This document shows positions 44,795-64,000 of a DNA stretch of 64,000 bases, piece after piece. This DNA comes from a virus (taxonomy: Duplodnaviria; Caudoviricetes). Numbering within the stretch: position 1 is the stretch's first letter; the number at the start of each line of letters is the position of its first letter. The notes below the pieces were generated by a model. It had not been told where the DNA came from. It did not search any database and saw only the letters and a list, made by a program, of their open reading frames with translations. The stretch lies in the IMG/VR virus record IMGVR_UViG_3300030104_005071, positions 1,343-65,342 of that record. One strand, written 5' to 3'. A program made the position numbers and the translations under genes.

Positions 44795-44802
44795 GAGAGA
44801 CA

Positions 44803-49691: not shown

Positions 49692-51701
49692 ATGTCTACG
49701 CGACCATACGTCGAGCACGTCTACAGTAATCTGAAGTCGCCTCGAACCAACGGAGATGCATGGGGCATCGACCTTGGACCCAAAACCCTACTTGTGGGGT
49801 CGAACACAAGCCACAAAAGCAGCGTGGTACAATCTATTGAGCTTGCAATTGCAGGATCTGCCGATGATGTAATCGGTCGTAGTATAGTATCCGATGCAGC
49901 TTTACTTTTAACACTTGCACCAGGAGATGAGCTTGGGGTTACGGCACGACTTAGTGATGGCTCTACGGCAAACTACAACGCACGTAGGGAAGAAGGTAAA
50001 GTCAAGCGCCCTCAACATGATGGTCCAGGCTCGGATAGTTTGGTCCACCGCTCAGTTGCAGCGGCGTTGTCAGGATCAGCAACAACAGCACGTAAAGCCT
50101 TCCTGGAATGGTCAGGTGACAACGTTACCCGTGACGATGTCTTACTCAGTCTACCAGAAGAGTTACATAATAAATACGCAGACATCGCAAAGCATCGAGG
50201 TAAGAACCTGAACGAGACAAAGACTCTCATTGAGGTTTTGAATTACGCAAACTCCAGATCGCGTGAGTTATCAAAAGAGGTCAAGGGTGCGGAGCTTATT
50301 CTTGAAAGCATCGGTGACTCGCTTGAGGCAAAACCTTCGGACGGTGATCTCGATAAGATGCGGTTCGCTGTAGCTGAAGCAAAAGAGATCTTAGATGTTT
50401 CGATTGCTCAATCAAACGGTGGGCTCACTCTTGAAGCTAAGCAAAAGAAAGTAGTCGAGCTTACAGAGAAACGGGATGCCTGGATTGATTACAAAGCACA
50501 GGCAGAGCTTTCAATCAGAGATCTAAAGTCTCAACTACCGCACAAGGGTGAGAACGTTGACGGTGCTATTGCGATTGTTGATGTCGCTGTAAAGCATGAG
50601 CTAGACGTTTGCCCCGTCTGTAGTTCAAGTGTCGGCTTGGCTCACCTGAAAAATTGCCAAAGCTTCTACCAAGAACAAAGCAATACATGGGAAACGCAAT
50701 CTCAGAAGTTGCTTGAGTCAATCAAAGCTGCGGAAGAAAGATCCGCAGGTTGTGACAACAACATTGTTGCCCTTGACCATGAGCTTCGAGAGATTGAAGA
50801 CACGGCGCTAACTAAAGTAGACTCTCGCGCATTACCTGTTTCCGAAGCACAGTATCGTTTGGAAGCTGCAATGAGTGCTCTGGGTAAGATGGAAACTGTG
50901 AACGATCGCTGGTCTGATTTGACTGGTGCTCAAGAACGGATTCAATCTTTCCGAGTCGATCAGGAAAACTATCGGTCACTTCGAATTGCTTGTGAGCGTT
51001 CAATTGGATTCTTGCTCTCAGAACAAGCACGTACGTTTAGTCAGTTGGTTCAACGCTTCTTACCCGATGCATGGAAATTCAAGATTGAATTGGTAGACGG
51101 TGAACGCGAAGTATTCCGTATGGGCTTTGAGCGTAACGGTAGGCTGCACTGTGCTTTGTCAGGTGCCGAATGGGCAACGGTTATCACGGCTGTCAGTATG
51201 GCTGTGACGTCTCAAATGAATAAGGACAAGCCAGCCATTCTCATTCCGTACGATAGAGCCTGGGACACACGAACGCTATCCGCTGTGATGCGTGGGTTCC
51301 TTAGCTTTGACGGGCAAGTTGTTATCGCCAGTACGGTAAGACCTATGGGTCGACCGCCAAAGGGTTGGACGATCATCGATATGGATGAGGTCAGCAAAAC
51401 TTGGGTGGAAGGTGAGAAGAAACCCGAAGAGCCTGAGCCGAAGAAGAAGCGTGTGAAGAAAACTCCTGAGCGTAGAAAAGTACGCAACGAAGGTGGACTA
51501 AGTGTCATTAGTCGAAGCGCACGTAAACTTCAGGAGATGGGCTACGCAATCTCTGATGTGCTCACGATGAGCAAGGAAACGGCGCAACATCTAATCAGCA
51601 ACAACATCCAGCCTGAGCTTGTTGAAATCCAATCTGATGGTGGATTCAAGATAATCAAAGCTGAAAATGTGTTGCCGATCTCGTTGCCACCGAGTCCGTA
51701 G
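49692..51701 (+). CDS. Rad50/SbcC-like ABC ATPase with zinc hook
   Basis: LLVGSNTSHKS, coiled coils flanking CPVC, signature LSGAE, Walker B-like LIPYDRAWD. Confidence 0.75.
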   Translation: MSTRPYVEHVYSNLKSPRTNGDAWGIDLGPKTLLVGSNTSHKSSVVQSIELAIAGSADDVIGRSIVSDAALLLTLAPGDELGVTARLSDGSTANYNARREEGKVKRPQHDGPGSDSLVHRSVAAALSGSATTARKAFLEWSGDNVTRDDVLLSLPEELHNKYADIAKHRGKNLNETKTLIEVLNYANSRSRELSKEVKGAELILESIGDSLEAKPSDGDLDKMRFAVAEAKEILDVSIAQSNGGLTLEAKQKKVVELTEKRDAWIDYKAQAELSIRDLKSQLPHKGENVDGAIAIVDVAVKHELDVCPVCSSSVGLAHLKNCQSFYQEQSNTWETQSQKLLESIKAAEERSAGCDNNIVALDHELREIEDTALTKVDSRALPVSEAQYRLEAAMSALGKMETVNDRWSDLTGAQERIQSFRVDQENYRSLRIACERSIGFLLSEQARTFSQLVQRFLPDAWKFKIELVDGEREVFRMGFERNGRLHCALSGAEWATVITAVSMAVTSQMNKDKPAILIPYDRAWDTRTLSAVMRGFLSFDGQVVIASTVRPMGRPPKGWTIIDMDEVSKTWVEGEKKPEEPEPKKKRVKKTPERRKVRNEGGLSVISRSARKLQEMGYAISDVLTMSKETAQHLISNNIQPELVEIQSDGGFKIIKAENVLPISLPPSP

Positions 51702-51705
51702 TAGG

Positions 51706-51788
51706 TGCTTGGAGCGGGAATCGAACCCGCACGGCTAGTCGCCGGGAGATTTTAAGTCTCCTGTGTCTACCGATTCCACCACCCAAGC
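51706..51788 (-). tRNA. trnL: tRNA-Leu (anticodon TAA)
   Basis: GCTTGGG/TCCAAGC acceptor, GGAGA-CTTAAAA-TCTCC anticodon arm, long variable arm, GGTTCGATTCC; followed by CCT (CCA incomplete). Confidence 0.92.
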
Positions 51789-51812
51789 AAGGAGGCTGAG
51801 CACATTGAGTGC

Positions 51813-52166
51813 TCAGTCGACTTGTAACTTCACTACCTTGTAGCTGTGTACCTGGTGGAACCCGTAACCATCTACGAAATAAATCTGAGGCATCCGAGCA
51901 CCTGTAGAAACCGTAGGTGCAGACTCAATAATCTTTATCGCTTCGTTGAAATCCTTGTCACCTTTGAAAGTAAAAGTCTTTTCGCCTGAGTTGCTGTGTA
52001 AGTACACGCGTCGGAATACTGCTTTCTCTGGTGCCTTTGGTTCAGGCGCAGCCTTCTTTGCGGGTGCTTTCTTAGGGGCAGCTTTCTTTGGTGCGGCCTT
52101 CTTCTTTGCAGGTGCTTTCTTTTTAGCGGCAGCTTTCGGTGCCGCAGTTTTCTTCGGTGTCGGCAT
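51813..52166 (-). CDS. Histone H1-like Lys/Ala/Pro-rich protein with small globular C-domain
   Basis: KKTAAPKAAAKKKAPAKKKAAPKKAAPKKAPAKK; SD AGGAGG before ATG 52166. Confidence 0.75.
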   Translation of the reverse strand: MPTPKKTAAPKAAAKKKAPAKKKAAPKKAAPKKAPAKKAAPEPKAPEKAVFRRVYLHSNSGEKTFTFKGDKDFNEAIKIIESAPTVSTGARMPQIYFVDGYGFHQVHSYKVVKLQVD

Positions 52167-52342
52167 GAGTCCTCCTATTGCCTTACAGGTAAGTATAACA
52201 GGGTGTGACAATTCGTGGTTTGACACGGGGTGGTGTGGCCCGATAGTCTTGTTGGGTTGGTGGGTTGCGCCAGTTAAATTCATCTCGTTCTGAGGTGAAT
52301 TGTTTTTGTTTGGAATTGATGTTGTTTATGTAGGTGGTTCAC

Positions 52343-54472
52343 ATGGAAGCAGATGGCACGGTGGGGATGGAGAGCCCCGAAGGCCAAAGCAGAAACCCTG
52401 AAAGTGGTTCTGTTGTTGATCGGGCAGTTGAAATAATTCGTGGTTTAGTTGAGCGTTTAAACAATGGTGGTCGACCAGAACATCGAGCCGCCTGGGATTC
52501 AATGCATGATCCCGAAACCATCAACACCTTAGCTGAAGCCTGGTTACAGGATGAGGGTCGGCTGATCACAAGTATCGCCCTCATTGAAATGGTTCCGAGA
52601 CAGGTTCAACGCGCAAGACAATTTAGGCGCACGATACAAACTCTTGCGAATGAAGTCCAAAGACGCAGGTCTGATCAGATCCTTGCGGATCTCGAAGAAC
52701 AGTTGGGCGAACTACCCACGCTTGAGACCATGCTGGACGGTGGCGCTCCACCACCAGAGGTTGTCACTCGTCAGGTGCTATCAACGCTTCGGGCTCCACG
52801 AGGTTTCGAAGTTGACTTCAACGGCGTTTACCGATTGACCGCACAAGTTGACGGCACTATCTCACGCACACGTATCGCCCTGGCTCCAATCTTCATCGCA
52901 GGGCGAACCATTGATGTTGTTAGCGGTGAAGCTAAACGTCTACTTGTTTGGCGTGGCGCAAGTGGTTGGCGATCACGGGTGGTCAACCGAAGAACCATTG
53001 TTGATGCCTCAAAGATTATTGCGTTGTCGAATCTAGATGCTCCCGTAAGCACGAACAATACACTGCACATGGTGTCATACCTGGCAGAGTTTGATGCTGA
53101 GAACGCGCATAGGTTTCCGGTGGTTCAATCAGCTTCGTCGATGGGTTGGCAACCTAATGGTGGATTCCTATTACCTGACATGTATTACTCAACAGATCAA
53201 AACGTGGGGCAAGACTTTGCACTGACGCCACCTTCAGGTCTTGAGACGTTGTCTGGTGGGTGGAAACCCAAAGGTACTTGGGGTGAATGGATAAGTGCGA
53301 TGCAGTTGGTCGAAGACTTTCCATACATGTTTATTGCTGTGTATGCGAGTGCCGCTGCACCATTACTGGAGGTGCTTCACATTCCAGGTTTTGTACTAGA
53401 CTTTAGCGGTGAGACCAGTGGCGGAAAGACAACGGCATTGAGATTTGCAGCTTCAGTTTGGGGTCGCCCTGCTGAGTCGTATCCTACTGCTATGTATTCG
53501 TGGGACGCAACTAAGGTATGGATTGAGCGTACCAGTGGGTTTCTAAAGAACCTTCCATTGGTCCTGGACGAAACTAAGCGAGCACGACACCCGCGAATTG
53601 TACGCGATGTGATCTATGACTTTTGCCAAGGCCAGGGTCGCGGTCGAGGTTCAGTCGAAGGAACCCGGCACACTGAGTCTTGGCGTTCTGTTTTGATTAG
53701 TAGCGGTGAGGGTGCGGCAACGTCGTTCTCTCAGGATGCAGGGACACGCGCCCGAGTCTTGTCGTTAAAGGGTAAGCCGTTGGGAGACGACGTTGTTGTG
53801 GGTTCGGCTGCTAGTGAGGAAGCACAGGCGCTGTTGGCTAAGAGCTATGGACATCTGGGGCGACACGTTGTGCAGTACCTGGTGGCGAACCGAGAGCGTT
53901 ATTCGGATATTCGTGCGGTGTTTCAGGCGTCGAGGCAGAAGTATTCAGAGCTTGCTCAGAGTGCTGTGTCGCGTAGACATGCAGGTCACTTGGCTGTGCT
54001 CGAAGTGGCGGCGAGTATTGTACACAGTCTTGGTGTGCCGACACCTACAGTTGATCCGTTCACATGTTTGCTGGAGTCACAGGAGCAGGCGGGGCACGAT
54101 GCAGACAGACCGTTATCTGCACTGCAAGATTTCCTGACTTGGTGTGCGACACACCAGAAAAGGTTTTGGGGTCGAGGCGAAAAGGATCGAGAAGGCAACA
54201 CAAAAGCACCACCGCAAGGTTGGGTTGGCGCTTGGGAAGACAAGAACGATTGGGATTCTATCGCAGTGACAACCACTGGATTCAACGCATTGATGAAAGA
54301 CTTAGGCCACGACCCCGACGAGATCATTACTCGCTGGAAGGACCGTGGCTGGTTGAGGTTGGGTGGAGGGAGTAAGCGCCCCAGGAGCAGAGTGATCCGC
54401 GTCGATGGGGCACCTACTCGATGCTATTGTATTGATCGGAACGCAGCCGATATGGCTATTGAATCCGAGTGA
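52343..54472 (+). CDS. DUF927/Cch-like replicative helicase
   Basis: MGWQ, YASAAAPLL, GETSGGKTT, SVWGRP, LPLVLDE, GQGRGR, W..VLISSGE, G..AR; C-terminal winged helix. Confidence 0.8.
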   Translation: MEADGTVGMESPEGQSRNPESGSVVDRAVEIIRGLVERLNNGGRPEHRAAWDSMHDPETINTLAEAWLQDEGRLITSIALIEMVPRQVQRARQFRRTIQTLANEVQRRRSDQILADLEEQLGELPTLETMLDGGAPPPEVVTRQVLSTLRAPRGFEVDFNGVYRLTAQVDGTISRTRIALAPIFIAGRTIDVVSGEAKRLLVWRGASGWRSRVVNRRTIVDASKIIALSNLDAPVSTNNTLHMVSYLAEFDAENAHRFPVVQSASSMGWQPNGGFLLPDMYYSTDQNVGQDFALTPPSGLETLSGGWKPKGTWGEWISAMQLVEDFPYMFIAVYASAAAPLLEVLHIPGFVLDFSGETSGGKTTALRFAASVWGRPAESYPTAMYSWDATKVWIERTSGFLKNLPLVLDETKRARHPRIVRDVIYDFCQGQGRGRGSVEGTRHTESWRSVLISSGEGAATSFSQDAGTRARVLSLKGKPLGDDVVVGSAASEEAQALLAKSYGHLGRHVVQYLVANRERYSDIRAVFQASRQKYSELAQSAVSRRHAGHLAVLEVAASIVHSLGVPTPTVDPFTCLLESQEQAGHDADRPLSALQDFLTWCATHQKRFWGRGEKDREGNTKAPPQGWVGAWEDKNDWDSIAVTTTGFNALMKDLGHDPDEIITRWKDRGWLRLGGGSKRPRSRVIRVDGAPTRCYCIDRNAADMAIESE

Positions 54473-54476
54473 TCGG

Positions 54477-54848
54477 CTAACCAGATGACTTTAAGTCCAT
54501 CCACTTGACCAGTCCTCGGACGTGATCGGGTGTCATGTATTGAAAGACAGCGAATGCCCACAGCACATCGAAGTCAAACTCCAGATCAAACTTGTCTGTA
54601 AATAACGAATGGATTGCTTTGCATCGTTCGTGGCTCGGTACTGATTTACCTTTCAACCAACGACCGATCTCCACACCAGACGCGTGAACCCGATCGTGGT
54701 CTGATAAGAATTCATTCAACATGCGAGAAAACTCACGGTTCGACACAATCCGATCCTCATCCACAAAAGCTTTGCGTCTTGCCTGGAAAAGTAAATTCTC
54801 AAATGCAAATGCGAATGGATAGTCGTCACGGTTTAGATCTTGAGTCAT
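54477..54848 (-). CDS. HTH DNA-binding protein
   Basis: SNREFSRML...SGVEIGRWLKGKSVPS. Confidence 0.6.
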   Translation of the reverse strand: MTQDLNRDDYPFAFAFENLLFQARRKAFVDEDRIVSNREFSRMLNEFLSDHDRVHASGVEIGRWLKGKSVPSHERCKAIHSLFTDKFDLEFDFDVLWAFAVFQYMTPDHVRGLVKWMDLKSSG

Positions 54849-55051
54849 TATTCACCTTCCCTTAGAATACGGAGACGACGCTTGGCTGCACGCTCAGCGC
54901 CATGTTTTGAGGTGTACGTGTTCTTGTACAGTATCTTGATTGCCGGGGCAGAAAGCCCGACATCATGATCCTCGTAGACTATGAGTGACCAGCATTTGTG
55001 TACGCCGTCACGCGGAGCACCATCGATCATTGTAATGAAGTAGTCGTACAT
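54848..55051 (-). CDS. Hypothetical protein
   Basis: 67 aa, TAATG-coupled. Confidence 0.6.
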   Translation of the reverse strand: MYDYFITMIDGAPRDGVHKCWSLIVYEDHDVGLSAPAIKILYKNTYTSKHGAERAAKRRLRILREGE

Positions 55052-55290
55052 TACTGACCCCCCAACGCAATGACCTGGGCTTTGACGATCGCCGCTGTCA
55101 CATCATCGTCTGCTGCCAACTCTTCACAAGCATCACACTCACCGCCCCAGTCACCGCCAACGATGTTGTCACAGTCTTCGTTGATACAAACTACGCACGC
55201 ACATTCGTCGCTGCCACTAAGGTGGTATCTCTGATCACATTCACTACACGTCCTATACCCGACGTTCCAGGCCATTCGGTCCCAGTCCAT
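55051..55290 (-). CDS. Small Cys-rich protein
   Basis: Multiple CxxC-like pairs; SD AGGAG. Confidence 0.6.
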   Translation of the reverse strand: MDWDRMAWNVGYRTCSECDQRYHLSGSDECACVVCINEDCDNIVGGDWGGECDACEELAADDDVTAAIVKAQVIALGGQ

Positions 55291-55336
55291 ATTCTCTCCT
55301 GTTGTTTAAAGATGTGTGTCACTGCGACACTCTATG

Positions 55337-55365
55337 TTTTTACCGCAAATTGAATGTCGCGTCAA
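55337..55365 (-). promoter_or_regulatory. Early promoter TTGACG-N12-TGCGG-TAAAAA
   Basis: Shares TGCGG before the -10 with promoters at 55550 and 61364. Confidence 0.55.
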
Positions 55366-55444
55366 GGAATAATTCGACACTACCTGTAGTGTATGATGTC
55401 GTTGGAGCACCTACAGAGTCGCGTAATCTATTTGAGAATCGCAA

Positions 55445-55518
55445 TAAAAAGCACCCGACCAGTGGAGAGGTACTGATCGGGCGCAAGTTTTTGTTCGGAC
55501 TGACCTCGGCGGTCGATC
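55445..55518 (-). ncRNA. Candidate small RNA (~75 nt) with anti-SD terminator loop
   Basis: Own promoter, no ORF, 13-bp hairpin with two G-U pairs only in the minus orientation, loop ACCTCTCC, U-run. Confidence 0.55.
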
Positions 55519-55520
55519 AA

Positions 55521-55550
55521 AGTTTAACCGCACTACATGTAGTGTGTCAA
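55521..55550 (-). promoter_or_regulatory. Promoter TTGACA-N12-TGCGG-TTAAAC containing the palindrome CACTACATGTAGTG
   Basis: Direct reading of the reverse complement. Confidence 0.6.
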
Positions 55551-55639
55551 ACCTTGGCGTCCACTACCAAAAATCCCTGCTCCCATGCAGATGTTTGTGG
55601 CGGCTCGAGTGGTCGACATAGGTGTGCCCCGAAGGATAT

Positions 55640-55666
55640 CAAAGGAAGCGGGGCCGAAGCCCCTTT
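55640..55666 (-). terminator. Hairpin GGGGC-TTCG-GCCCC after ORF 55669
   Basis: UUCG tetraloop, weak U-tract. Confidence 0.45.
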
Positions 55667-55668
55667 GG

Positions 55669-55893
55669 TTATGGTGTTGTTGGATCTACCTCCATGATGA
55701 TTTCCCCGTTGTGCATCAAGGCTTCGTGAGCAGTTGTGGTTTCGCCCTGTATTAGTTCGGTGAAGCGCCATTGTTTGGCTGTGGTGGGTGCACCGGCAAC
55801 TTCGAGGATTTCATTTGTGGACCACTCACGAGGATCGAAGTTTTGATCTTCGTCAGTGAGGTGTACGGTTAGTTGGATTGCCCAGGTTTTCAT
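55669..55893 (-). CDS. Hypothetical protein
   Basis: 74 aa from ATG 55893. Confidence 0.5.
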   Translation of the reverse strand: MKTWAIQLTVHLTDEDQNFDPREWSTNEILEVAGAPTTAKQWRFTELIQGETTTAHEALMHNGEIIMEVDPTTP

Positions 55894-55906
55894 AGTGTTT
55901 CCGTTG

Positions 55907-55987
55907 TTATTGAACGATGTAGGCACAGCCGTGCCAGAATAGAACGAACCAGACAAAGGCAGTTGCAAAGTCATACATGTCGTACAT
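55907..55987 (-). CDS. 26-aa hydrophobic micro-protein (not in ORF track)
   Basis: MYDMYDFATAFVWFVLFWHGCAYIVQ; TGATG-coupled; fills the gap. Confidence 0.5.
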   Translation of the reverse strand: MYDMYDFATAFVWFVLFWHGCAYIVQ

Positions 55988-56133
55988 CAGAATGGAACCT
56001 CGTTGTAGTTGGTTTTGGTGATCCATGTTTCTGACGCAAGGAAGAAGCCTGGTCCGGCCTCGTCGTCGGATAGCATTTGGGGGATGACCCGTAGTAGTTC
56101 GTTGAGTTCAGCTAATGTTATAGGTACTGTCAT
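55987..56133 (-). CDS. Small hypothetical protein
   Basis: 48 aa, TAATG-coupled, ends EVPF. Confidence 0.5.
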   Translation of the reverse strand: MTVPITLAELNELLRVIPQMLSDDEAGPGFFLASETWITKTNYNEVPF

Positions 56134-56828
56134 TAATGTTGTAAGAATCCGATTATCGGAACCCCCTCGTGTGTTGTTGCATCGCAGAGACCGCACGTAT
56201 TGCAGTCACGGCGTCCGACCTGGGCTGGGCATAATACAACTTTGCGCCCTTCGGGCGTTGTGTATTGTTCGCCGGACCATTCAGGCAGGTTTCGCAGTTG
56301 TGGTTTGTTTGCGCCTGGAGCTTTGCGGTCTGTGATGGTGACGGCTACGCGCCATCCGGCATCGACTGCGGTGTCGGCTTCGGCGAGGTTGTCGCATGAC
56401 GCCATTGCGAGGCCACGTAGGTGTCGGCCTTTGGTTGCGAAGAAGTGCGTGTAAGCTAAGACGCCCTTTAATCCAGAGGCTTTGGCTTTGTGGTGCCACA
56501 AGGCGACCGTGTTCCTGTCAAATACGTTGGGGTCACCGCCCACTGCTGCACGTATGTAACGGGCTGCACGACGCGCGTTGGCTAAAGCGTAGTCGAGCGT
56601 GTACTCGTCGGGGTGCCGACGCTCCCGTACACGCATTGACTGATGGGCACCCTGCGTTTGGCCCTGCCAATAGTAACAACCACCTCCCTTCCCAGTCTCT
56701 GGATCTTTACGACGCCACTTGCACCCAGTGCACGACGCTTCAGTTTGTTCTTTGGTTTCGCCAACATACCCTTGTGGTATATTGCCTGTTTTTGCATTGC
56801 CCGATGTGGGCCGCCATAACATTTTCAT
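56133..56828 (-). CDS. Cys-rich Fe-S/radical-SAM-like phage protein (gp88/DUF7227-like)
   Basis: SGNAKTG, SCTGC...CY, R...GD, YTH, ASCD, CPAQ...CNTCGLC...F.H. Confidence 0.6.
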   Translation of the reverse strand: MKMLWRPTSGNAKTGNIPQGYVGETKEQTEASCTGCKWRRKDPETGKGGGCYYWQGQTQGAHQSMRVRERRHPDEYTLDYALANARRAARYIRAAVGGDPNVFDRNTVALWHHKAKASGLKGVLAYTHFFATKGRHLRGLAMASCDNLAEADTAVDAGWRVAVTITDRKAPGANKPQLRNLPEWSGEQYTTPEGRKVVLCPAQVGRRDCNTCGLCDATTHEGVPIIGFLQH

Positions 56829-56832
56829 TGTA

Positions 56833-57219
56833 CTACCCGGAGCAGATGTCGTGGTAACGAACGCGTGGTTGAGCGGATTTTGTTTTGTCGCAGTACTCGA
56901 TTTCAAACAAAGCGTAATCGGATTCACGGACAGGTATTTGGGTTGACGCGTCGACGAACGTGCTGTGTTTGTATGGGTTGTATGTCACTCGGGCGGTACT
57001 TAAGCGATTGACGTCGAGATCGACGTGACGCAACTGGTAACCACGGGCAAAGGCGTGTACGTTTTTGCGTTTGTCGCGTCGAACCCGAGCCTGACCGCCT
57101 GGTTGCACGACCCATTTGACATTTTCCAATGCGAAACAGTCGACGTGATCAACCACTTTGCCGTTGTGGCGTACGCTGAAAAGTTTGCGCGTGAGGTTCC
57201 AATAGATTTCTACTTTCAT
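56833..57219 (-). CDS. Conserved phage hypothetical protein
   Basis: YWNL...FSVR...GQARVRRDKRKNVHAF..G...VTYNPY. Confidence 0.65.
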   Translation of the reverse strand: MKVEIYWNLTRKLFSVRHNGKVVDHVDCFALENVKWVVQPGGQARVRRDKRKNVHAFARGYQLRHVDLDVNRLSTARVTYNPYKHSTFVDASTQIPVRESDYALFEIEYCDKTKSAQPRVRYHDICSG

Positions 57220-57377
57220 TTTATGTCTCTGAGGCAGTTGAGCCAGTGGTCGTGTTTGGTTGTGATGAGGTAGGTCCACAGTACGTCGACCTCGTGTTGC
57301 AGGTTGTCGCAGTCGTCGTCGATCAGTTCGTCGATGACCTCAACCTGGTCCAGAATTTTAGATAGGATTTGTTCCAT
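57216..57377 (-). CDS. Small hypothetical protein (not in ORF track)
   Basis: MEQILSKILDQ...; coupled on both sides. Confidence 0.5.
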   Translation of the reverse strand: MEQILSKILDQVEVIDELIDDDCDNLQHEVDVLWTYLITTKHDHWLNCLRDIK

Positions 57378-57532
57378 CACTTACTTCCATCGTCATTGAA
57401 TTCTTCTGTTTTTAGAAGTGCGGCTCGTAGAAGATTCCAATCGATATCATTCATGGTTCCTCCGTCTTCGGATGCAATTAGTACGTGCTCGATTACAGAA
57501 CGTAGGTATAAAATAGTTTGTGGTGGTGTCAT
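57377..57532 (-). CDS. Small hypothetical protein (not in ORF track)
   Basis: MTPPQTILYLRS...; TAATG and TGATG coupling. Confidence 0.5.
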   Translation of the reverse strand: MTPPQTILYLRSVIEHVLIASEDGGTMNDIDWNLLRAALLKTEEFNDDGSK

Positions 57533-57768
57533 TATTGATCTCTTTTGGTATTGATTAGGGCGGACACGTCGTCGTATGTCGGGCGTCCTCGACCGTTAGT
57601 GTGCCAAGGATCACCGAGATTTAAACAGGCTCCGTGTTCATCGAAGATATCGAAGAACGAATCAGGGTCATCGGCTAACTCTTTGCCTTGCCAAGACAGA
57701 GTTACAAAGTAGTACTGACCGTTGATTATGTATCGGGCGATAGTTTCAGTATGACAGTTTCCCATCAC
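57532..57768 (-). CDS. Hypothetical protein
   Basis: FFDIFDEHGACLNLGDPW; SD GGAGG. Confidence 0.6.
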   Translation of the reverse strand: MMGNCHTETIARYIINGQYYFVTLSWQGKELADDPDSFFDIFDEHGACLNLGDPWHTNGRGRPTYDDVSALINTKRDQ

Positions 57769-58148
57769 TCACCTCCCTTGGTTGGTATGATTACAGTGGA
57801 AACCCATTGGCCGTTAAGAGGTAGACCCACAATTGATTTCATGTCCACGGTCCATACATCGGCACAATCTTTGGAGCACCATCCGTCCGCGTTCGACCAG
57901 AAAAGGTATGCTTTACCAGAGTCGTCGAACTCATCGAGATGGCTACCACTGAGCATTCGTTTGTGACGAATCATCCAACGCTTGACCGGTGTGGCTCGAT
58001 GCGACTGGCACCCTGCACCTTCAATGCAGTACCACTCTCCATAGCCAGTACCACAACGGCGCATAGCTTCTACCATTACGTATCTGTCACCTTCTCTTCC
58101 GCAGTTTGCACATTGAAATTTGTCGTTCATATTAAACAAATTAGACAT
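57765..58148 (-). CDS. Hypothetical protein
   Basis: CANC; LFWSNADGW motif. Confidence 0.6.
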   Translation of the reverse strand: MSNLFNMNDKFQCANCGREGDRYVMVEAMRRCGTGYGEWYCIEGAGCQSHRATPVKRWMIRHKRMLSGSHLDEFDDSGKAYLFWSNADGWCSKDCADVWTVDMKSIVGLPLNGQWVSTVIIPTKGGE

Positions 58149-58384
58149 TATTTACCGTCCTTACATTCGTGGGGAGCATCGATGTGGTGTGACTCGTCGC
58201 AGTGTACGCATGTGGCCTGATCATCATTGCGGAACATGTTTAAGACACCATGCGCGTTACACATTACGCGGTTCAATGAGCCATCATCGTCGCCATCGTA
58301 TAGGTTTGGGTCGGATTCAAGGTAGTTGACCAGGAGTTGTAGAGCGTCGTACGCGCGTTGCAATTTGTAGATGTTGGTTTTCAT
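58148..58384 (-). CDS. Hypothetical protein
   Basis: 78 aa from ATG 58384, C-terminal CVHC. Confidence 0.5.
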   Translation of the reverse strand: MKTNIYKLQRAYDALQLLVNYLESDPNLYDGDDDGSLNRVMCNAHGVLNMFRNDDQATCVHCDESHHIDAPHECKDGK

Positions 58385-58395
58385 TATGCTGTCCG

Positions 58396-58767
58396 CTATT
58401 GATTGGGATCGGGGTTGAAACATGGCTCGGGTTTGCCGTAGCCATGCCAGTCGAGCACACGATCCCGCCAGTTTTTTGAGTACTCGGTGGTGGGTGCGTC
58501 GACCTGGGCCAGTAGTGATAGTGGGCACTCATGGTGACATGGGCCCATTGATTCATCGATCGGTTTATATCCCCAGTCACCACCGTAAGATGACAGTTTG
58601 AACAGGCAGATAAACGATGGGCCTTGCTGGGGTTGAATGGCAAACCACAGGTGACGCCCATAGTTAGTGGCTTTACGGTCGATGAGCGTAAAACCGCCTG
58701 TGCTGTATTGGTTGACGAGGTCGTCGACTACGTCCTGGCGGCTGTAGTATCCAGAGAATGTACCCAT
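58396..58767 (-). CDS. DUF6927-like protein
   Basis: WGYKPIDESMGP...CPLSLL...WRDRV. Confidence 0.65.
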   Translation of the reverse strand: MGTFSGYYSRQDVVDDLVNQYSTGGFTLIDRKATNYGRHLWFAIQPQQGPSFICLFKLSSYGGDWGYKPIDESMGPCHHECPLSLLAQVDAPTTEYSKNWRDRVLDWHGYGKPEPCFNPDPNQ

Positions 58768-58913
58768 TGTGTGCTCCTGTTGGTTAAAGAAGGGGCGGTG
58801 CAGGTCGTCGTGCTGTGCGTAAGCGATTCACGTGGAACCCAAACGGCTCATGCATCCTGATTTGCTAACGGTGCCGCCACACCGTGGGGTTTTGATCAGT
58901 TCCCAATACTGAA

Positions 58914-59828
58914 TTACTTGGCTTCGCCGACGTCAATGTATTCGCGTACTTCCAGATTGAATTCAGGAATGTATGCGTCTTGGGCTGAGCCACCGGAGAT
59001 GGCGATTGCCTTGGTGGCGTGATCAATTCCAGCGTAATGCTTGAATCGATTGATCGGTGCGGTGCGCTGACCGGTAGCCGTGACTGCTTGGTAAGCGGAG
59101 AACAAGTTGTTTCCGCCGTGGTCGTCATGTAGCTCGCCGTTATGGCACGCGTCCCAATACTTGAGACCAGCGGACATCTCGTTGATCTTCAGAAGACGAC
59201 GACCAGTTAGGACGCCGAGGTAAGCGAAGAACAAATCGTTGGTCATTGGAATGTCGCGCCATTCCTCGATCATGCGTACGCGTTCAAGCACTGGGGTAAT
59301 TGAATCGTTAGTCAATTCGTCTAACATGCGACCGAGTGTCGGGAACACATTGGTTGTGTGCTTTGCGCTGATCATGTGATCGGCAGAGAAACAACCGTTC
59401 GCGCAGATGAACGGTGCATGCCCGATGCCTGCCTGGTTGGATATGCTCTTGTCATAGCTGGAACGAAGTGCCAGTGTGAGAGCAAGTCCAGGTATCTCGG
59501 ATTCGAATCCGATCATACCGAATAGCTGTGTGCCGGATTTGTTGAGGGCGTATGTCTCGAACGATGGATCACGGTCGAGCACGGTAGCCATTGAGTCACG
59601 AGCGCCATCGATGAACGATGCGTAAGGTACGGGTTGGTACGATACGTTGCCCGAGCTTTCACGGTACGTAGTATCGGGAACTTCGATCTGACATACATCA
59701 TCGTATGTTGCACGGTATGCGTCAGGTGCGCCGATCAAACAGATCTGCTTGGATTTGATTTCAGGTGGTGGAGCTACCCGAGCACGGGCGAGCGAGGTGT
59801 TAAGACGTTCGATTGATTGAGGTTGCAT
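58914..59828 (-). CDS. DUF932-like protein
   Basis: YQPVPY, LRSSYDKS, ICANG, KHT, NLFSAYQAVT. Confidence 0.65.
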   Translation of the reverse strand: MQPQSIERLNTSLARARVAPPPEIKSKQICLIGAPDAYRATYDDVCQIEVPDTTYRESSGNVSYQPVPYASFIDGARDSMATVLDRDPSFETYALNKSGTQLFGMIGFESEIPGLALTLALRSSYDKSISNQAGIGHAPFICANGCFSADHMISAKHTTNVFPTLGRMLDELTNDSITPVLERVRMIEEWRDIPMTNDLFFAYLGVLTGRRLLKINEMSAGLKYWDACHNGELHDDHGGNNLFSAYQAVTATGQRTAPINRFKHYAGIDHATKAIAISGGSAQDAYIPEFNLEVREYIDVGEAK

Positions 59829-60100
59829 TAGTCTCTCCTGGGTGGTGGGGATGATGACGGTTGATTGACATCGAAGTTGATTGAGAATGGATTGTGTGGT
59901 TGCTGTTCGGCAGCGTCTTGGATGACCATGCGAATCACGGACATCAAGCCGTCCAGGCGAAGCTGCTCTTCTTCGGAACAGTTTAGATATTCGGCCTGGT
60001 TTTTAGCGTGGGGATTGAGGTTGCATATTGCTCGGGCCCGTGCGGTGTCTGCAACTGCACGGCGATATGCTTCGAGGTTGTCATTGATCATGTGAAACAT
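59828..60100 (-). CDS. Hypothetical protein
   Basis: About 90 aa, helical. Confidence 0.5.
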   Translation of the reverse strand: MFHMINDNLEAYRRAVADTARARAICNLNPHAKNQAEYLNCSEEEQLRLDGLMSVIRMVIQDAAEQQPHNPFSINFDVNQPSSSPPPRRD

Positions 60101-60419
60101 GGTGAGCCCTTTCGATGTGGATGAATATGTCTTCAATCGTACAAAGGTTATTGTCGATTGCTTGTTGGAGGATTTCGCGATGACTTAATGTTTCGTCGTA
60201 GGTAGCGAATTCCCGGATATCAAATTGATGTACCGAGGTGGGGTCGCCCCATGAATCGAGACCGTCGTAGTTTAGGGTGTACCAATAAGTCAGACGGTTG
60301 TCTGACTCATGGTTTTTGTAGCAGTGGTACACGCGGATCGTTTGGTGAATGGGTGTTGGACCAATCTTGTAGCAGACGAATGCTAACTCTGGGTTGATCC
60401 ATTCCGTACGCCAAGGCAT
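60081..60419 (-). CDS. Hypothetical protein
   Basis: VYHCYK...YWY...FDIRE. Confidence 0.6.
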   Translation of the reverse strand: MPWRTEWINPELAFVCYKIGPTPIHQTIRVYHCYKNHESDNRLTYWYTLNYDGLDSWGDPTSVHQFDIREFATYDETLSHREILQQAIDNNLCTIEDIFIHIERAHHVSHDQ

Positions 60420-60643
60420 TAGCTGGGCTCTTCATCGCGGGTTGCAAGAACCTCACGACTTTCTTTGATGAGCCACTTGAGTTCATCGTGAGTGAGGCTG
60501 ATGAGCCAAGGCACATCGACAGTTATTTGAGCTTCGCAATCGAAGTCCTGGACTTCGCATGAGACGTACTCGTCTTGTACTGTGATGTCGACATTGGCTG
60601 CATCGACGTAGACTTCTTGTGTCCATTGTATCTGAGTGATCAT
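60419..60643 (-). CDS. Small acidic hypothetical protein
   Basis: 74 aa, SD AGGA. Confidence 0.55.
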   Translation of the reverse strand: MITQIQWTQEVYVDAANVDITVQDEYVSCEVQDFDCEAQITVDVPWLISLTHDELKWLIKESREVLATRDEEPS

Positions 60644-60652
60644 GATTAAATC

Positions 60653-60859
60653 CTAATGTGCGCGGAAGTTGTAATAGAATCGAGGCGAGTGATTGAAATC
60701 GAGCGTCCCGCGCTGACCATCTGATCGACGCGTGACGATAACGAGTGGTGCCAAGAAGCTTTCAACAGAGAAGTCACGTTGAAGTTCGGTGGTGTTCCAT
60801 ACATCACCATGAATGTCTGTTAGCTTTTGGCGTTCGGTTGCTTTGTCGAGAAGCATCAT
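60653..60859 (-). CDS. Conserved small hypothetical protein
   Basis: VWNTTELQRDF.V..F.AP.V.V.R.SDG..G.L.F.HSPR.Y. Confidence 0.65.
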   Translation of the reverse strand: MMLLDKATERQKLTDIHGDVWNTTELQRDFSVESFLAPLVIVTRRSDGQRGTLDFNHSPRFYYNFRAH

Positions 60860-61305
60860 TCACCTCCTGTTACGAGCCTGAGACCTTTCTCAGTTTCGAG
60901 GTTGTCGTAGACATCGATGTCCTCAAGAGTGACGAGGCCGTCAAATTTGGTACTGCCTGAACGTGCAATCTCACGGTAGGGCATGATGTCATTGAGCCGT
61001 TGTTCGAATTTAGACTGGCCGTTCTTGACCTCGAATCGACCTTTACGAATGTCGTCCAGGTCGGTGAGCAACCGGTCATACGTGACATCGTTGATGCGGT
61101 CGAGTAGATATCGAACGATGTGAGCAGAGCCTCCATCGTTACGACGATTGCTGACGCCGGGTTCACCTTTCTTGAGTTGTCCCTCAATGGTGACGGTCAT
61201 CTTGATTGGGTATGTACCCGCGTCAAGATCGTTGGTAAGTGCGTCAGCGTTCTTACCGTTGTTGAATTTACGAAGGGTTTCTAAGTACATTGCTGGAACC
61301 TGCAT
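60856..61305 (-). CDS. Hypothetical protein
   Basis: 149 aa, strong leader CTTTAAACAACAGGAG. Confidence 0.65.
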   Translation of the reverse strand: MQVPAMYLETLRKFNNGKNADALTNDLDAGTYPIKMTVTIEGQLKKGEPGVSNRRNDGGSAHIVRYLLDRINDVTYDRLLTDLDDIRKGRFEVKNGQSKFEQRLNDIMPYREIARSGSTKFDGLVTLEDIDVYDNLETEKGLRLVTGGE

Positions 61306-61335
61306 GGTTTCTCCTGTTGTTTAAAGTACTGGGTT

Positions 61336-61364
61336 AGTATACCGCAGTGGTATAATGATGTAAA
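61336..61364 (-). promoter_or_regulatory. Early promoter TTTACA-N12-TGCGG-TATACT
   Basis: Direct reading of the reverse complement. Confidence 0.6.
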
Positions 61365-61377
61365 GAGTAATTTGAGA

Positions 61378-61716
61378 TTACCACCAAGATGTGTAGTAAA
61401 TCTTTTTGTTGGAGTCGAGAGCTTTGCGAGCGACGTGTATGAAGTCCCAAGTGTCGACCATTTGTTGTTCGGTTGTGTGTCCGAAAAAGAATCCAGTTGT
61501 TTCTGGAAGACCTTCAAGTTTTACTGCGGTTTCCAAAGTGTTGATGTCATCTTCGGAAAGATATAAACGTTCGCAGTTAAATTCGGCTGTGTTTCCTCGT
61601 GCATAGAATAGTGCGGCCATGAAGCCTTCGAGGTTGGCGTGTTTACGGAAGTAGTAAAGTTCTGTGTCTTCCTGGTCGGGTGGTTCTTCAGCGAATAGAT
61701 ATTGATCAAGTCCCAT
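61378..61716 (-). CDS. Conserved phage hypothetical protein (MGLD...RK family)
   Basis: MGLDQY...YFRKH..L.G...FNC...LPETTGFFFG...YTSWW. Confidence 0.7.
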   Translation of the reverse strand: MGLDQYLFAEEPPDQEDTELYYFRKHANLEGFMAALFYARGNTAEFNCERLYLSEDDINTLETAVKLEGLPETTGFFFGHTTEQQMVDTWDFIHVARKALDSNKKIYYTSWW

Positions 61717-61761
61717 TGGTATCTCCTATTGGGTGTGTGGTTGATAGGTCCGATATGAGGA

Positions 61762-61923
61762 TCAGATTAAGTAGACGTCGAGCAAGTGACCCCACTGATC
61801 GCCGACTTGCTTTTGTACAAGGTGCACTGCAACCGCTGCATTCTCTGCGTCGATCTCTTTGTACCGTGGACGGCCTTCTTCGACGGTTGCATAAATGACG
61901 TGGTATTTTCTCGCTGGTGCCAT
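61762..61923 (-). CDS. Small hypothetical protein
   Basis: 53 aa, SD GGAG before ATG 61923. Confidence 0.55.
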   Translation of the reverse strand: MAPARKYHVIYATVEEGRPRYKEIDAENAAVAVHLVQKQVGDQWGHLLDVYLI

Positions 61924-62004
61924 GTTGTCTCCAAGGATGACTGCGCAACACACACCTCATAAGCATCACGGGACGCTGATAGTATCTGTGTCGTTGGGGT
62001 TGGC

Positions 62005-62357
62005 TGTAACGTTACGACCTGGTGTTACGCGAGAACGCAGGTTGTACCGTGTGTATAGAGTTTAGAGTTGGTTAGCGTAACACTCTGTAACGCTTGGTGT
62101 GTTACGCTATATGGTAGGTTGAACCAACTGAATGACCAGGTGTAACACTGTAACACCGATTTGGTGGATAGCATATACATATAGGATTGTGATGTGTGTC
62201 AATGGGTAATTGAATTACTCACTTAACAACTTTACTCACGCGCTACGTATATGTAGTAGAAAAAGAGTGTTACAGTGTTACACTTTAATATAGTATAGAT
62301 AGAACCTATGATATGCCGTAACACTGGGAGTGTTACACTGTGTTACAGAGTGTTACA
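62005..62357. repeat. Iteron-like array of (T/C)GTAACAC / GTGTTAC(A/G) octamers around an AT-rich core; putative replication origin or packaging site
   Basis: About 14 copies; TGTAACACTGTAACAC (62141-62156) inverted against GTGTTACAGTGTTACA (62267-62282); three copies at 10-bp spacing (62330, 62340, 62350). Confidence 0.75.
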
Positions 62358-62394
62358 GGTTGTTGAATAAAGAAGTGTGGGGTAATGTGGGTAT

Positions 62395-62934
62395 ATGGAA
62401 GACGATGTTGAGTTGCCCCGTGTGCCCGTTCCTGCTGCCGAAGGGTTGCAGGTGATACCGCGTACTGTGGTTCCAGCCGGTGAGGCTGAAGTGGTTGCTA
62501 TGCTTGCTGAACAAGCACGGTTCGATGGTAACGATCGGATGCGTGATGTAGCTAAACAGCTTTTAGGAGCTGGGTATACAGTAGCTACTGCTGCAAGACG
62601 TTTAGGAATCCGCCCAACAACTGTGTGGGGCTGGTCAAAAGAACCTGACTTTGTAGAGATTATCCAAGCTGGAGCCGAAAGGCGCAAGGATATACTTGGT
62701 GAAGGTTTACAGGAGGCTGCGGAAGCAGCACTTAGTGCGCTACTTGAAGTTGCAACTGATGTTGGAGCGCAACCTCGTGATAGAGTTAAAGCTTCAGAAG
62801 CTATTTTAGATCGATGTGGTATTACTCCCCAGTCTGAATCCTCAGAAACTCGGGTAGGTGTTACAGTAGATGTAGACTTTGATGAGAGATTAGCCAGGAT
62901 TGTTGCAGCGAGTGCATCATCGGGCTCTAAGTAG
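62395..62934 (+). CDS. Probable terminase small subunit (HTH)
   Basis: GYTVATAARRLGIRPTTVWGWSKEPDF...RVKASEAILDRCG. Confidence 0.7.
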   Translation: MEDDVELPRVPVPAAEGLQVIPRTVVPAGEAEVVAMLAEQARFDGNDRMRDVAKQLLGAGYTVATAARRLGIRPTTVWGWSKEPDFVEIIQAGAERRKDILGEGLQEAAEAALSALLEVATDVGAQPRDRVKASEAILDRCGITPQSESSETRVGVTVDVDFDERLARIVAASASSGSK

Positions 62935-62954
62935 TTGATTTCAAAGGAGAAATC

Positions 62955-63299
62955 ATGCACGGCAGCGCACCTAAACTATTGATCATTGCAAAACGCGAAG
63001 CTTTGGGCGATGAGATGGCTGACTTTAGCGGCGATTCGTACATCGACGCTAAGAAAAAAGCGATGAGTAGTGACGATCCACCGGATACAAAGTATTCGGA
63101 AGATCATCACGAGGCAATGAAGCAAATGGCTGACGAGTTGTACAAAGCATCTAAGCTGCACGCTGGTCAAGCAGATAAGCTGATGGAGATCTGCGAAGAA
63201 ATGTATAACGAGTCAGGCGATAAGGATGAATCGAAAGATGATAAGCCGCACAAGTCGTACGGCGATCATAATCCTTACGGATCACACAAGAACTATTAG
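62955..63299 (+). CDS. Hypothetical protein
   Basis: 114 aa, SD AAGGAG; ELYKASKLHAGQADKL. Confidence 0.65.
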   Translation: MHGSAPKLLIIAKREALGDEMADFSGDSYIDAKKKAMSSDDPPDTKYSEDHHEAMKQMADELYKASKLHAGQADKLMEICEEMYNESGDKDESKDDKPHKSYGDHNPYGSHKNY

Positions 63300-63302
63300 T
63301 AG

Positions 63303-63392
63303 TTAATCTCTGCGTGGATCTAACGCAGTGAAGTACGCTGCTGTAAAGAGTGTTGTGAGAATCATTAGTAGGGATACGTGAAAGAAAAACAT
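63303..63392 (-). CDS. 29-aa single-TM micro-protein (not in ORF track)
   Basis: MFFFHVSLLMILTTLFTAAYFTALDPRRD; SD AGGAG. Confidence 0.55.
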   Translation of the reverse strand: MFFFHVSLLMILTTLFTAAYFTALDPRRD

Positions 63393-63400
63393 GTTGTCTC

Positions 63401-63664
63401 CTAGAATGGTTTGAACGCGTCGTGAAGATCTATGCCCATTGCAGATACTTCTTCTCGAATCCTTTCGACCCGTCTCTCATGCAGAGCTATCAACTCCCCA
63501 CCCTCGTAGTCTTCGGGGGCGTTGAGCTTGGCGTCGTCTAGCCTAAGCAGAGCGTCGTAGTAACGTTGTCTTTTGGCTCGTCGGTCGAGCCAAGGAAAGA
63601 GGAAGAAGATGATTGCTGCATTGGTTGTAAGCATGAAGATGATGAGTGAGTAGAACCCGTCCAT
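63401..63664 (-). CDS. Single-TM hypothetical protein
   Basis: ATG 63664 with SD AAGGAG; N-terminal TM. Confidence 0.6.
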   Translation of the reverse strand: MDGFYSLIIFMLTTNAAIIFFLFPWLDRRAKRQRYYDALLRLDDAKLNAPEDYEGGELIALHERRVERIREEVSAMGIDLHDAFKPF

Positions 63665-63701
63665 GACGTTCTCCTTAAGGTTGAGGGGTTTCCCCCACGG
63701 C

Positions 63702-63989
63702 CTAAGCCGTGAGGGTTGTATCGATTTGGATGTCGCTGACTTCACCCACGTTGGTCATCCTTCCCCAGATATCGACGTAGTCGTCTGTGGGATTGTTGGA
63801 TACCTCTTTGACCTTCTTGACCCAGTGAGGTCCAACGTTGTTGGATGATGGTCGTCCTTCCCATTCTTTGACACCGAAGTGTCGGTCTGAGAAGAAGATT
63901 GGTTCGTTGTGCCAAGTCTCCTGAAGTCCGATTGAGAAGGTAGACATCTCATCGTTGATCCAAGGTCGCATGTGCCGTGGCATCTTCAT
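63702..63989 (-). CDS. Hypothetical protein
   Basis: 95 aa at the window edge. Confidence 0.5.
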   Translation of the reverse strand: MKMPRHMRPWINDEMSTFSIGLQETWHNEPIFFSDRHFGVKEWEGRPSSNNVGPHWVKKVKEVSNNPTDDYVDIWGRMTNVGEVSDIQIDTTLTA

Positions 63990-64000
63990 CGCGATGCGTC

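Follow-up and report, generated by a model that had tools for sequence, protein, structure and literature searches.

A window of 64,000 nucleotides (nt) from an uncultured phage of the Caudoviricetes (the whole stretch analyzed; IMG/VR record IMGVR_UViG_3300030104_005071, positions 1,343 to 65,342) carries on its minus strand, at about 55445-55550, a unit that is very likely a small regulatory RNA gene common to a group of uncultured phages. Our preferred reading, to which we give slightly better than even odds (roughly 0.55), is that the unit is transcribed independently into a non-coding small RNA (sRNA) that acts in trans, with an invariant core, GUCAGUCCGA, serving as its seed on the messenger RNA (mRNA) of the phage's own Sak4-like gene. 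This core is exactly complementary to codons 272-275 of the 325 in that gene, and the mechanism of the sRNA probably runs through pairing between the two.

Conservation of the core and of its complementary site

Relatives were drawn from 36 viral loci retrieved via the primase/helicase, 11 viral and 80 metagenome loci retrieved via DUF7227 (the gene neighboring the sRNA in relatives, identified by Pfam), and 80 loci retrieved via the Sak4-like protein; individual loci and genomes are given L and G numbers below. The RNA was present in 12/36 primase loci, 3/11 viral and 20/80 metagenome DUF7227 loci and 3/80 Sak4 loci, counts that are to be read in the knowledge that many of the loci are incomplete. 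The resulting family comprises 27 distinct sequences, 11 of a short form and 16 of a long form. The core, at 55504-55495 in the window, is the most conserved stretch of this family: it is identical in 25/27 distinct members, and in L013 and L118 it reads GUCAAUUCGA.

The candidate target site UCGGACUGAC lies on the plus strand at 45621-45630, within the Sak4-like gene (44803-45780), where the codons read GG[T CGG ACT GAC] with the site in brackets, and it occupies the loop and 3' arm of a small predicted hairpin. The gene product matches phrog_124 (E 1.2e-10) and Pfam AAA_24, and is of the single-strand-annealing type, so that the label "Sak4-like", originally assigned from the sequence alone, was upheld. 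We compared the site across 81 genes, that of the window and those of the 80 Sak4 loci, and defined a close group by at least 76% protein identity to the window (n=44). The exact 10-mer was found in 34 of these close genes and a 9/10 match in one, with 3-7 mismatches in the other nine; the distant genes had 3-9 mismatches at the site in 37/37 cases. Across the 30 distinct genes in which the site is kept, no invariant stretch exceeds the 11-nt run GGTCGGACTGA, and the next longest measures 5 nt. There are 167 amino-acid-invariant codons in these 30 genes and only four are also codon-invariant, three of which are GGT, CGG and ACT. No comparable invariant run is seen at that position in the nine close genes that lack the site. 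As a control, the helicase motif RIGLTAT, which is invariant in the protein, was found to vary freely at synonymous positions in the same loci.

Among the contigs in which both RNA and site could be read, presence of the site followed presence of the canonical RNA beside DUF7227. The site is kept in 12/12 contigs that carry the canonical RNA beside DUF7227 and the primase (the window, L002, L003, L007, L008, L010, L011, L012, L014, L015, L016 and L017; a 9/10 match in L007), and is present in 0/7 other contigs (L013, the L004 contig, G012, G013, G014, G010 and G011). Among these site-less contigs, L013 has the altered core GUCAAUUCGA, the L004 contig has no core 10-mer in 22 kilobases (kb), and G012, G013 and G014 are without an exact core, one-mismatch matches not having been examined singly. 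The protein tree indicates at least 3-4 state changes (one gain, and losses nested among close relatives), and one of the loss clades is nested among the nearest relatives of the window.

Folding of the two RNAs together gave a minimum-energy dimer that uses the core-site duplex in 3/4 genomes, with net energies of -7.7 to -10.9 kcal/mol compared with about -5 for shuffled sites. In L007 and L008 the core is followed by GAUUU in the linker, in place of GAAAC. A comparison by hand with the sites of L137 and L324 indicates three additional pairs, U-A, U-G and U-G, to the AGG immediately before the Sak4 site, and in L007 these extra linker pairs offset the end pair lost through a change of GAC to GAA; in the dimer fold of L007 (G002), 12 rather than 10 consecutive sRNA positions are paired. 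Both a conserved seed and a conserved complementary site, as expected of trans-acting base-pairing sRNAs, were found, with G010 and G011 as exceptions. The kept gene architecture, the helix covariation described below, the complementarity and the frozen synonymous target positions can be read directly from the aligned sequences.

Several observations weigh against this reading. G010 and G011 keep the RNA core elsewhere in the genome, and their Sak4 site has drifted by 3-4 mismatches; the core must therefore also be held by something else, perhaps a host target, and the link to Sak4 does not extend to every carrier of the RNA. Core and site have both changed in L013, though not in a compensatory manner, and a search for a site that would suit its changed core gave nothing better than 1-2 mismatches. 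Matches of 10 nt are in themselves not rare: complementarity between the 72-nt RNA and the window extends over 9 nt or more in 43 places and over 10 nt or more in 11. The match alone therefore means little, and the weight rests on the behavior of the site across relatives. In the ranking by hybridization energy (duplexfold) the site stood 4th and 3rd in two genomes; in two more it fell to about 244th and 560th. The Sak4 site is left unused in the dimer fold of G001. Both 10-mers are on the same DNA strand, and a DNA-level motif would give identical co-occurrence. The contigs are related, and 12 versus 7 represents few independent events. The core lies partly within the 3' arm of the 5' hairpin of the RNA (H1). 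A search for RNA sequencing runs containing 53000-58000 listed none, and transcription, the RNA ends, pairing in vivo and its outcome we infer.

Two further sites were considered as targets and set aside. An exact core complement, ATC GGA CTG ACA, occurs in the helicase motif RIGLTAT in L289/L290 and L298/L301 only; the helicase ortholog in the window (41148-43076) reads ATT GGC TTG ACA near 42090. The motif varies freely elsewhere, and we treated this helicase-gene site as occasional or chance. A 9-nt site upstream of Sak4 in G010 and G011 is confined to those two close relatives.

Extent, forms and genomic context of the family

A blastn search of the 471-nt intergenic stretch against the 36 primase loci gave a match limited to query positions 169-278, which run from the -35 element to the terminator, and alignment with relatives showed the flanks outside this block to be unrelated. 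Because similarity in relatives spans exactly this block, the unit is not a chance terminator. In 23/27 distinct members (that of L003 was read by eye) TTGAC is separated by a 17-nt spacer from a T(A/T)nnn(A/C) hexamer that ends 6-8 nt before the first G of H1; the -35 hexamer is weaker in L007 and L008, and the spacing differs in L013 and L118. The extent of the block and the fixed promoter distance support the original prediction of a stand-alone non-coding unit.

A covariance model built from five close copies also matched, weakly, the corresponding position in more distant relatives. These have the long form, which shares the promoter, the 5' hairpin and GGUCAGUCCGA, and continues with a middle and a terminator hairpin, the middle one being G+C-rich and standing in place of the A-rich linker of the short form. 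The terminator helix covaries in both forms, as the original prediction had asked to be checked. In the short forms (n=11) 100% of cells pair, 6/13 pairs have changed on both sides, and the score was reached by 0/500 shuffles. In the long forms (n=15) 87.7% of cells pair and 5 pairs have changed on both sides, compared with 24-41% pairing in slid controls; the long-form alignment was fitted to the covariance model, which favors the structure. A U-G pair that would be a mismatch if read on the opposite strand is kept in 9/11 short forms. At the fourth pair of H1, C-G has been replaced by U-A in L007 and L008 and by U-G in L013 and L118, and the middle hairpin of the long forms still pairs despite unrelated letters (GGGG/CCCC, GCGGG/CCCGC, GGGCUU/AAGCCC and GUCC/GGAC). 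The 13-bp hairpin and U5 tract with its covarying helix fit the predicted end of a short, discrete RNA.

The unit was found in three contexts: ahead of same-strand genes (the window and L063), abutting the stop codon of a convergent 112-amino-acid (aa) gene (L002, L003, L016, L066, L077 and L085), and at a second genome location, again beside that convergent gene, in G010 and G011. In most relatives the genes that adjoin the sRNA and converge on it are a pair homologous to one located at 62395-63299 in the window. Where the long form occurs, its promoter extends over the end of the DUF7227 gene upstream, and the terminator of the DUF7227 operon also serves the RNA. With respect to a cis-antisense role, the RNA of relatives ends at the convergent gene and not inside it, and in the window the unit overlaps only an unconserved, mechanically called open reading frame (ORF) on the plus strand (55302-55697).

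In a scan of the whole window with Rfam 15, a transfer RNA (tRNA) alone passed the gathering score and the sRNA unit matched no family. Permissive Rfam scans of the short unit and of the L016 long form yielded sub-threshold, terminator-driven matches only, the best being STnc310 with 25.6 bits against a gathering score of 40, on the opposite strand. Judged by these comparisons, the predicted sRNA is a new family within the phage-encoded trans-acting sRNAs, carried by a clade of uncultured 65-75 kb phages.

Some further resemblances were examined and dropped. The likeness of AGUCCGAAAC to a hammerhead core had no Rfam match. Mimicry of a clustered regularly interspaced short palindromic repeat (CRISPR) was discounted, the 13-bp stem being too long. 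An internal pseudoknot between linker CGAAA and loop UUUCG, available to some long forms, cannot be formed by the short forms, L007/L008 or L017. The pattern AGGTCAGTCCGA...GCGCCCG matched six stretches in viral contigs, and those in L041 and L042 were chance matches within coding sequence. Separately, L028 (12566-12636) and L020 (12783-12859) carry divergent hairpin-plus-terminator units with TTGAC promoters, located 3' of the primase gene on the opposite strand and lacking the AGUCCGA core (L020 reads GUCAGUCAGU); these phages are also without the Sak4 site.

Anatomy of the unit in the window

On the minus strand, the unit is flanked by a 101-aa ORF, whose stop is at 55669, and a 79-aa ORF, whose start is at 55290, and the minus-strand features named in the original prediction (promoter, H1, linker, 13-bp stem and TTTTT) were each located where they had been placed. 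The promoter, P1, has its -35 element TTGACA at 55550-55545. Its -10 region (55521-55527) can be taken as TTAAAC (55527-55522, with a 17-nt spacer) or as TAAACT; our promoter scan read P1 as N18 + TAAACT, with 10/12 matches. As 10 promoter matches were found in the 14 kb of 50000-64000 and 13.6 were expected, the P1 match alone is not above chance, and P1 is credible because the promoter is kept in relatives, not because of its match score. Transcription is predicted to start at about 55514-55517, which would give an RNA of approximately 68 nt, roughly from 55514 to 55447.

The predicted RNA opens with H1, GACC-GCCGA-GGUC (55514-55502), which is invariant in 11/11 short forms and whose 3' arm overlaps the core. 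Next come AGUCCGA, the A-rich single-stranded linker ACAAAAACUU (55494-55485; DNA letters ACAAAAACTT), and the terminator hairpin (55484-55451), in which a 13-bp stem, GCGCCCGATCAGT/ACTGGTCGGGTGC, carries an 8-nt loop, ACCUCUCC (55471-55464; DNA letters ACCTCTCC). The U tract UUUUU (55450-55446) would form the end of the RNA. Only on the minus strand do the two irregular positions of the stem become G-U and U-G pairs, in agreement with the orientation first proposed. The RNA folds with -31.9 kcal/mol (z -4.4), a value equaled by 0/200 shuffles, and its terminator ranks first of 22 terminator-like sites in 50000-64000, having the most pairs (13).

Mechanical calls place ORFs of 30-48 aa (minus strand) and of 131 aa (plus strand, 55302-55697) across the unit. 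The earlier description of the unit as containing no ORF therefore calls for qualification, and it stands in the sense that neither the reading frames nor the flanks of the unit are kept in relatives. A small protein encoded in the unit was ruled out: indel lengths among relatives do not keep to multiples of three, and the long forms contain an entire additional hairpin.

Between the stop of the upstream gene (55669) and P1 there are two terminator-like hairpins on the minus strand (55568-55663), namely GGGGCUUCGGCCCC at 55650-55663 and UCUGCAUGGGAGCAGG with a U-run at 55568-55591, which suggests that transcription from upstream would mostly end before the sRNA unit in this phage. The A-rich linker, which on the other strand reads as a U-run after a hairpin, could serve a two-way terminator. 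A recurrent element, CCGCAUGGGCAC(C/A)GGGAUUUUUCG, consists of a short stem, a loop CAUGGG.. and then a U-run. It was seen in the window (55568-55591, minus strand), in L045 and L048 (about 4005-4090) and in L054 (about 590-670); the window has one copy, ahead of the sRNA promoter, and the L004-L006 contigs have two tandem copies, exactly at the vacant place of the sRNA. The element could represent a weak terminator or a further small RNA.

The spacer of P1 is filled by a perfect 14-bp palindrome, CACTACATGTAGTG (55531-55544), a likely operator that we term O1. The palindrome is kept, or nearly so, in the spacer of location-A short-form relatives. A second operator-like palindrome, CACTACAGGTAGTG, with one mismatch relative to the CACTACATGTAGTG copy, lies at 55378-55391. 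Downstream of it, at a distance of 12 nt, is a second, similarly built promoter (minus strand; TTGACG at 55360-55365, N17, TAAAAA at 55337-55342) that reads into the genes at 55290-54477. The pattern TTGAC-N15-SGKTW occurs at two sites in the whole window, P1 and this second promoter, and L063 has the same layout of palindrome and promoter directly before a homolog of the 123-aa protein of the window (54477-54848). This protein had no Pfam or PHROGs match and is helix-turn-helix-like by eye only. We infer that it may control both promoters: a regulator would bind the spacer palindrome, and the pair of palindromes at two tandem promoters resembles a two-operator switch, perhaps for the 123-aa protein.

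The source phage and other features of the window

The source record is a viral sequence of 65,342 nt with an estimated completeness of 92% and a single copy of the sRNA unit. The phage encodes its own polymerase, helicases, primase/helicase, portal and terminase. The sRNA unit had no DNA match among 50,697 GenBank phage records; when the region 50000-62000 was compared with GenBank phages at the DNA level, the tRNA alone was matched, and the best matches of the primase/helicase among GenBank phage proteins had 22-29% identity. A scan of GTDB genomes with the DUF7227 protein found no relative. A DNA pattern scan of GTDB with a loose pattern returned more than 120 chance matches, mostly in high-G+C genomes, and 0/92 loci examined had both hairpin and terminator. 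By these searches the phage is an uncultured one, without a cultured relative on record.

Other features observed in the window include the tRNA, a tRNA-Leu with anticodon UAA (51704-51788, minus strand; 87.5% identity to tRNAs of Pseudomonas jumbo phages), and an ORF of 2590 aa within the structural module (24869-32641, plus strand). The plus-strand pair at 62395-63299, a terminase-small-subunit-like gene (phrog_2538, E 3.6e-07) and a 114-aa gene, forms an island within a minus-strand gene cluster.

The terminator loop and alternative explanations

The original prediction assigned the effector role to the terminator loop ACCUCUCC, as an anti-Shine-Dalgarno sequence that blocks the ribosome-binding sites, GGAGAG(G), of selected genes of the phage or its host. 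Conservation of the loop, the lack of which that prediction had named as counting against it, was observed: the motif is CUCUCC in 10/11 distinct short forms and ACUU(U/C)C in 16/16 long forms, staying constant while the closing pair varies, and family-wide CUYYCS is found in 26/27 terminator loops. In one short form (L085, 3599-3670) CUCUCC is missing from the terminator loop and UCUCCC is present in the H1 loop, as though the motif had been relocated, which would also suit a loop with a function. The ribosome-binding site of the Sak4-like gene (44794-44799, plus strand) is GGAGAG, complementary to CUCUCC, as it is in 5/5 short-form phages, a 143-aa gene has the same site in the window and G001, and C-rich loops that pair with Shine-Dalgarno sequences are known, for example in RNAIII of Staphylococcus aureus and RsaE. 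However, the selectivity on which this explanation depends was not found. GGAGAG precedes the starts at 44803, 49204 and 55290, as had been pointed out, and also that at 59828; GGAGA is the commonest Shine-Dalgarno form of the phage, with 20 starts, so that about five GGAGAG would be expected and four are seen, and across five genomes GGAGAG is no commoner at starts than the other hexamers counted. The contact would amount to 6 base pairs only. In long-form phages the Sak4-like site is GGAGAA (5/5), to which the long-form loops ACUUUCG, ACUUUCC and ACUUCCG are not complementary, and hence loop and site do not covary. The loop is also less conserved than the core. We therefore consider it unlikely that the loop is the effector; a contact with GGAGAG is possible, and would be secondary at best. 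The gene at 49204, described as NDT/TIR-like when the loop was proposed to act on it, had no Pfam or PHROGs match, and this label was not upheld.

A somewhat less likely explanation again is that the shared 10-mer, GGTCAGTCCGA, is a DNA-level signal bound by a phage or host protein in both the unit and the Sak4-like gene, with RNA complementarity as a by-product. In all the genomes examined the two copies share one DNA strand, the joint loss of site and RNA would equally follow if the binding protein were lost, and G010 and G011 retain the motif in the RNA gene and not in Sak4. Such a signal would nevertheless be asymmetric and single at each place, with two conserved copies only per genome, which is unlike typical operators or iterons, and it would have to sit at a fixed place of a transcript unit with conserved promoter, hairpins and terminator. 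Moreover, the hairpin arm beside the Sak4 site varies in an RNA-compatible manner (A to G giving G-U, and G-C to U-A in L137). It appears quite improbable that the unit has no function as an RNA and is a mere terminator (in part a bidirectional one) or the 3' untranslated region of the operon upstream. Its hairpin and U tract are a textbook intrinsic terminator, most relatives place it right after DUF7227 and abutting the stop codon of the convergent gene, and the short-form linker is a U-run on the other strand, to which the covariance model matches weakly (27.7 and 20.5 bits). This leaves unexplained the promoter 6-8 nt before H1 in 23/27 members, the invariant core, the conserved H1 and the conserved loop motif; in addition, the window already has two terminator-like hairpins before the unit and no convergent gene near it, and the G-U pairs favor one strand. 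The purely terminating hairpin, which the original prediction had named as an outcome that would count against it, is a poor description of the family. Finally, lambdoid phage late promoters give a short terminated transcript that is extended by an antiterminator, and the unit could likewise be a cis-acting leader, read through into 55290-54477 under an antiterminator or via a put-like RNA. In the window and L063, same-strand genes do follow the promoter, short RNA and strong terminator. In most relatives, however, nothing lies downstream on that strand and the unit faces the end of a convergent gene, the downstream genes of the window have their own promoter-like site and operator, and no Rfam leader or antitermination family matched, so that we regard this explanation as scarcely tenable.

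Proposed mechanism and significance

Under the preferred reading, that of an sRNA with its core as seed on the Sak4-like mRNA, the RNA would consist of a short 5' hairpin, the invariant core, a linker (A-rich, or a G+C-rich hairpin) and a strong terminator with a C/U-rich loop. With a palindromic operator within its sigma-70-like promoter, it is probably switched by a phage regulator. The core would pair with the hairpin-presented site at codons 272-275, encoded approximately 10 kb away on the other strand. As this site is deep in the coding region, pairing cannot block initiation, and the likely effect would be altered cleavage or stability of the replication/recombination operon mRNA, in either direction. 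A weaker, additional contact may be made by the CUCUCC loop at the GGAGAG ribosome-binding site of the Sak4-like gene. An extended version, which we regard as a long shot, is a two-seed RNA whose core clamps the Sak4-like coding region, whose loop binds the GGAGAG site of the same gene, and whose loop is also a decoy anti-Shine-Dalgarno sequence competing with ribosomes for GGAG-type phage or host sites; the upper stem and loop, GAUCAGUACCUCUCC, resemble the 3' end of 16S ribosomal RNA. If so, the unit would be an operator-controlled switch over recombination and translation together.

The family of 27 distinct members from uncultured phages is recognizable by its sequence alone, and its target signature is unusual, in that synonymous positions are frozen over the 10 core-complementary bases and drift in lineages without the RNA at that place. 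If the pairing is real, it would constitute RNA-level control of a phage recombination and replication operon, and a comparison of frozen synonymous sites with conserved intergenic cores would offer a general route to sRNA-target pairs in metagenomes. If it is not, the common 10-mer remains an unexplained conserved signal.

Comparison with known systems

To our knowledge, phage sRNAs with known targets are few, and nearly all come from model coliphages and prophages. The phage lambda sRNA LPR1/PreS (bioRxiv 10.1101/2024.10.31.621285) and a prophage sRNA (PMC13502914) were both found experimentally and are described in these reports as trans-acting regulators of host genes in Escherichia coli. 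They are, as is proposed for the window sRNA, short phage-borne RNAs that pair with mRNAs in trans. Their targets are host genes, whereas the best candidate target of the window sRNA, itself a prediction made purely from sequence, is the mRNA of the phage's own recombinase. We found no sequence or Rfam relation between sRNAs of the LPR1/PreS type and the window sRNA.

Among RNAs that act on the phage's own genes, the OOP RNA of phage lambda is approximately 70-80 nt long, has its own promoter and intrinsic terminator, and pairs with the 3' part of a phage coding region. The window sRNA resembles it in size, in having its own promoter and terminator, and in a target within a coding region rather than at a ribosome-binding site. 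OOP is a cis-antisense RNA with full overlap, whereas the window sRNA and its candidate target are about 10 kb apart and share 10 nt. C4 of P1/P7 and Sar of P22 have exposed segments that pair with phage mRNA and control a regulatory or replication-related gene, which recalls the idea of ribosome-binding-site blocking in the original prediction. C4 did not match the short or the long form among the Rfam matches listed at E up to 10. It is processed from the transcript that it regulates. The complementarity of the window unit to ribosome-binding sites is not above chance. Pairing of pyrimidine-rich loops with Shine-Dalgarno sequences is known from the terminator hairpin of RNAIII and from RsaE in Gram-positive bacteria; the window family differs in having CUCUCC or CUUUCS and not UCCC, and in showing no enrichment at, or covariation with, ribosome-binding sites.

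Functional parallels to the proposed site are offered by enterobacterial sRNAs that pair inside coding regions, such as MicC on ompD, which leads to decay, and SgrS on pldB/yigL, which protects a downstream cistron. These have in common with our proposal a seed of about 10 nt deep in the coding sequence and an effect via ribonuclease cleavage or protection, and the Sak4 site lies approximately 170 nt before the next cistron (start 45797); they act in enterobacteria, and the window sRNA is known as a sequence only. A last parallel concerns origin. DapZ and MicL are of the type of 3'-end sRNAs transcribed from an internal promoter. The window unit departs from this arrangement in being set apart from the upstream gene by two terminator-like hairpins, whereas the long forms resemble it, as their promoter overlaps the end of the DUF7227 gene and they share the terminator of its operon.

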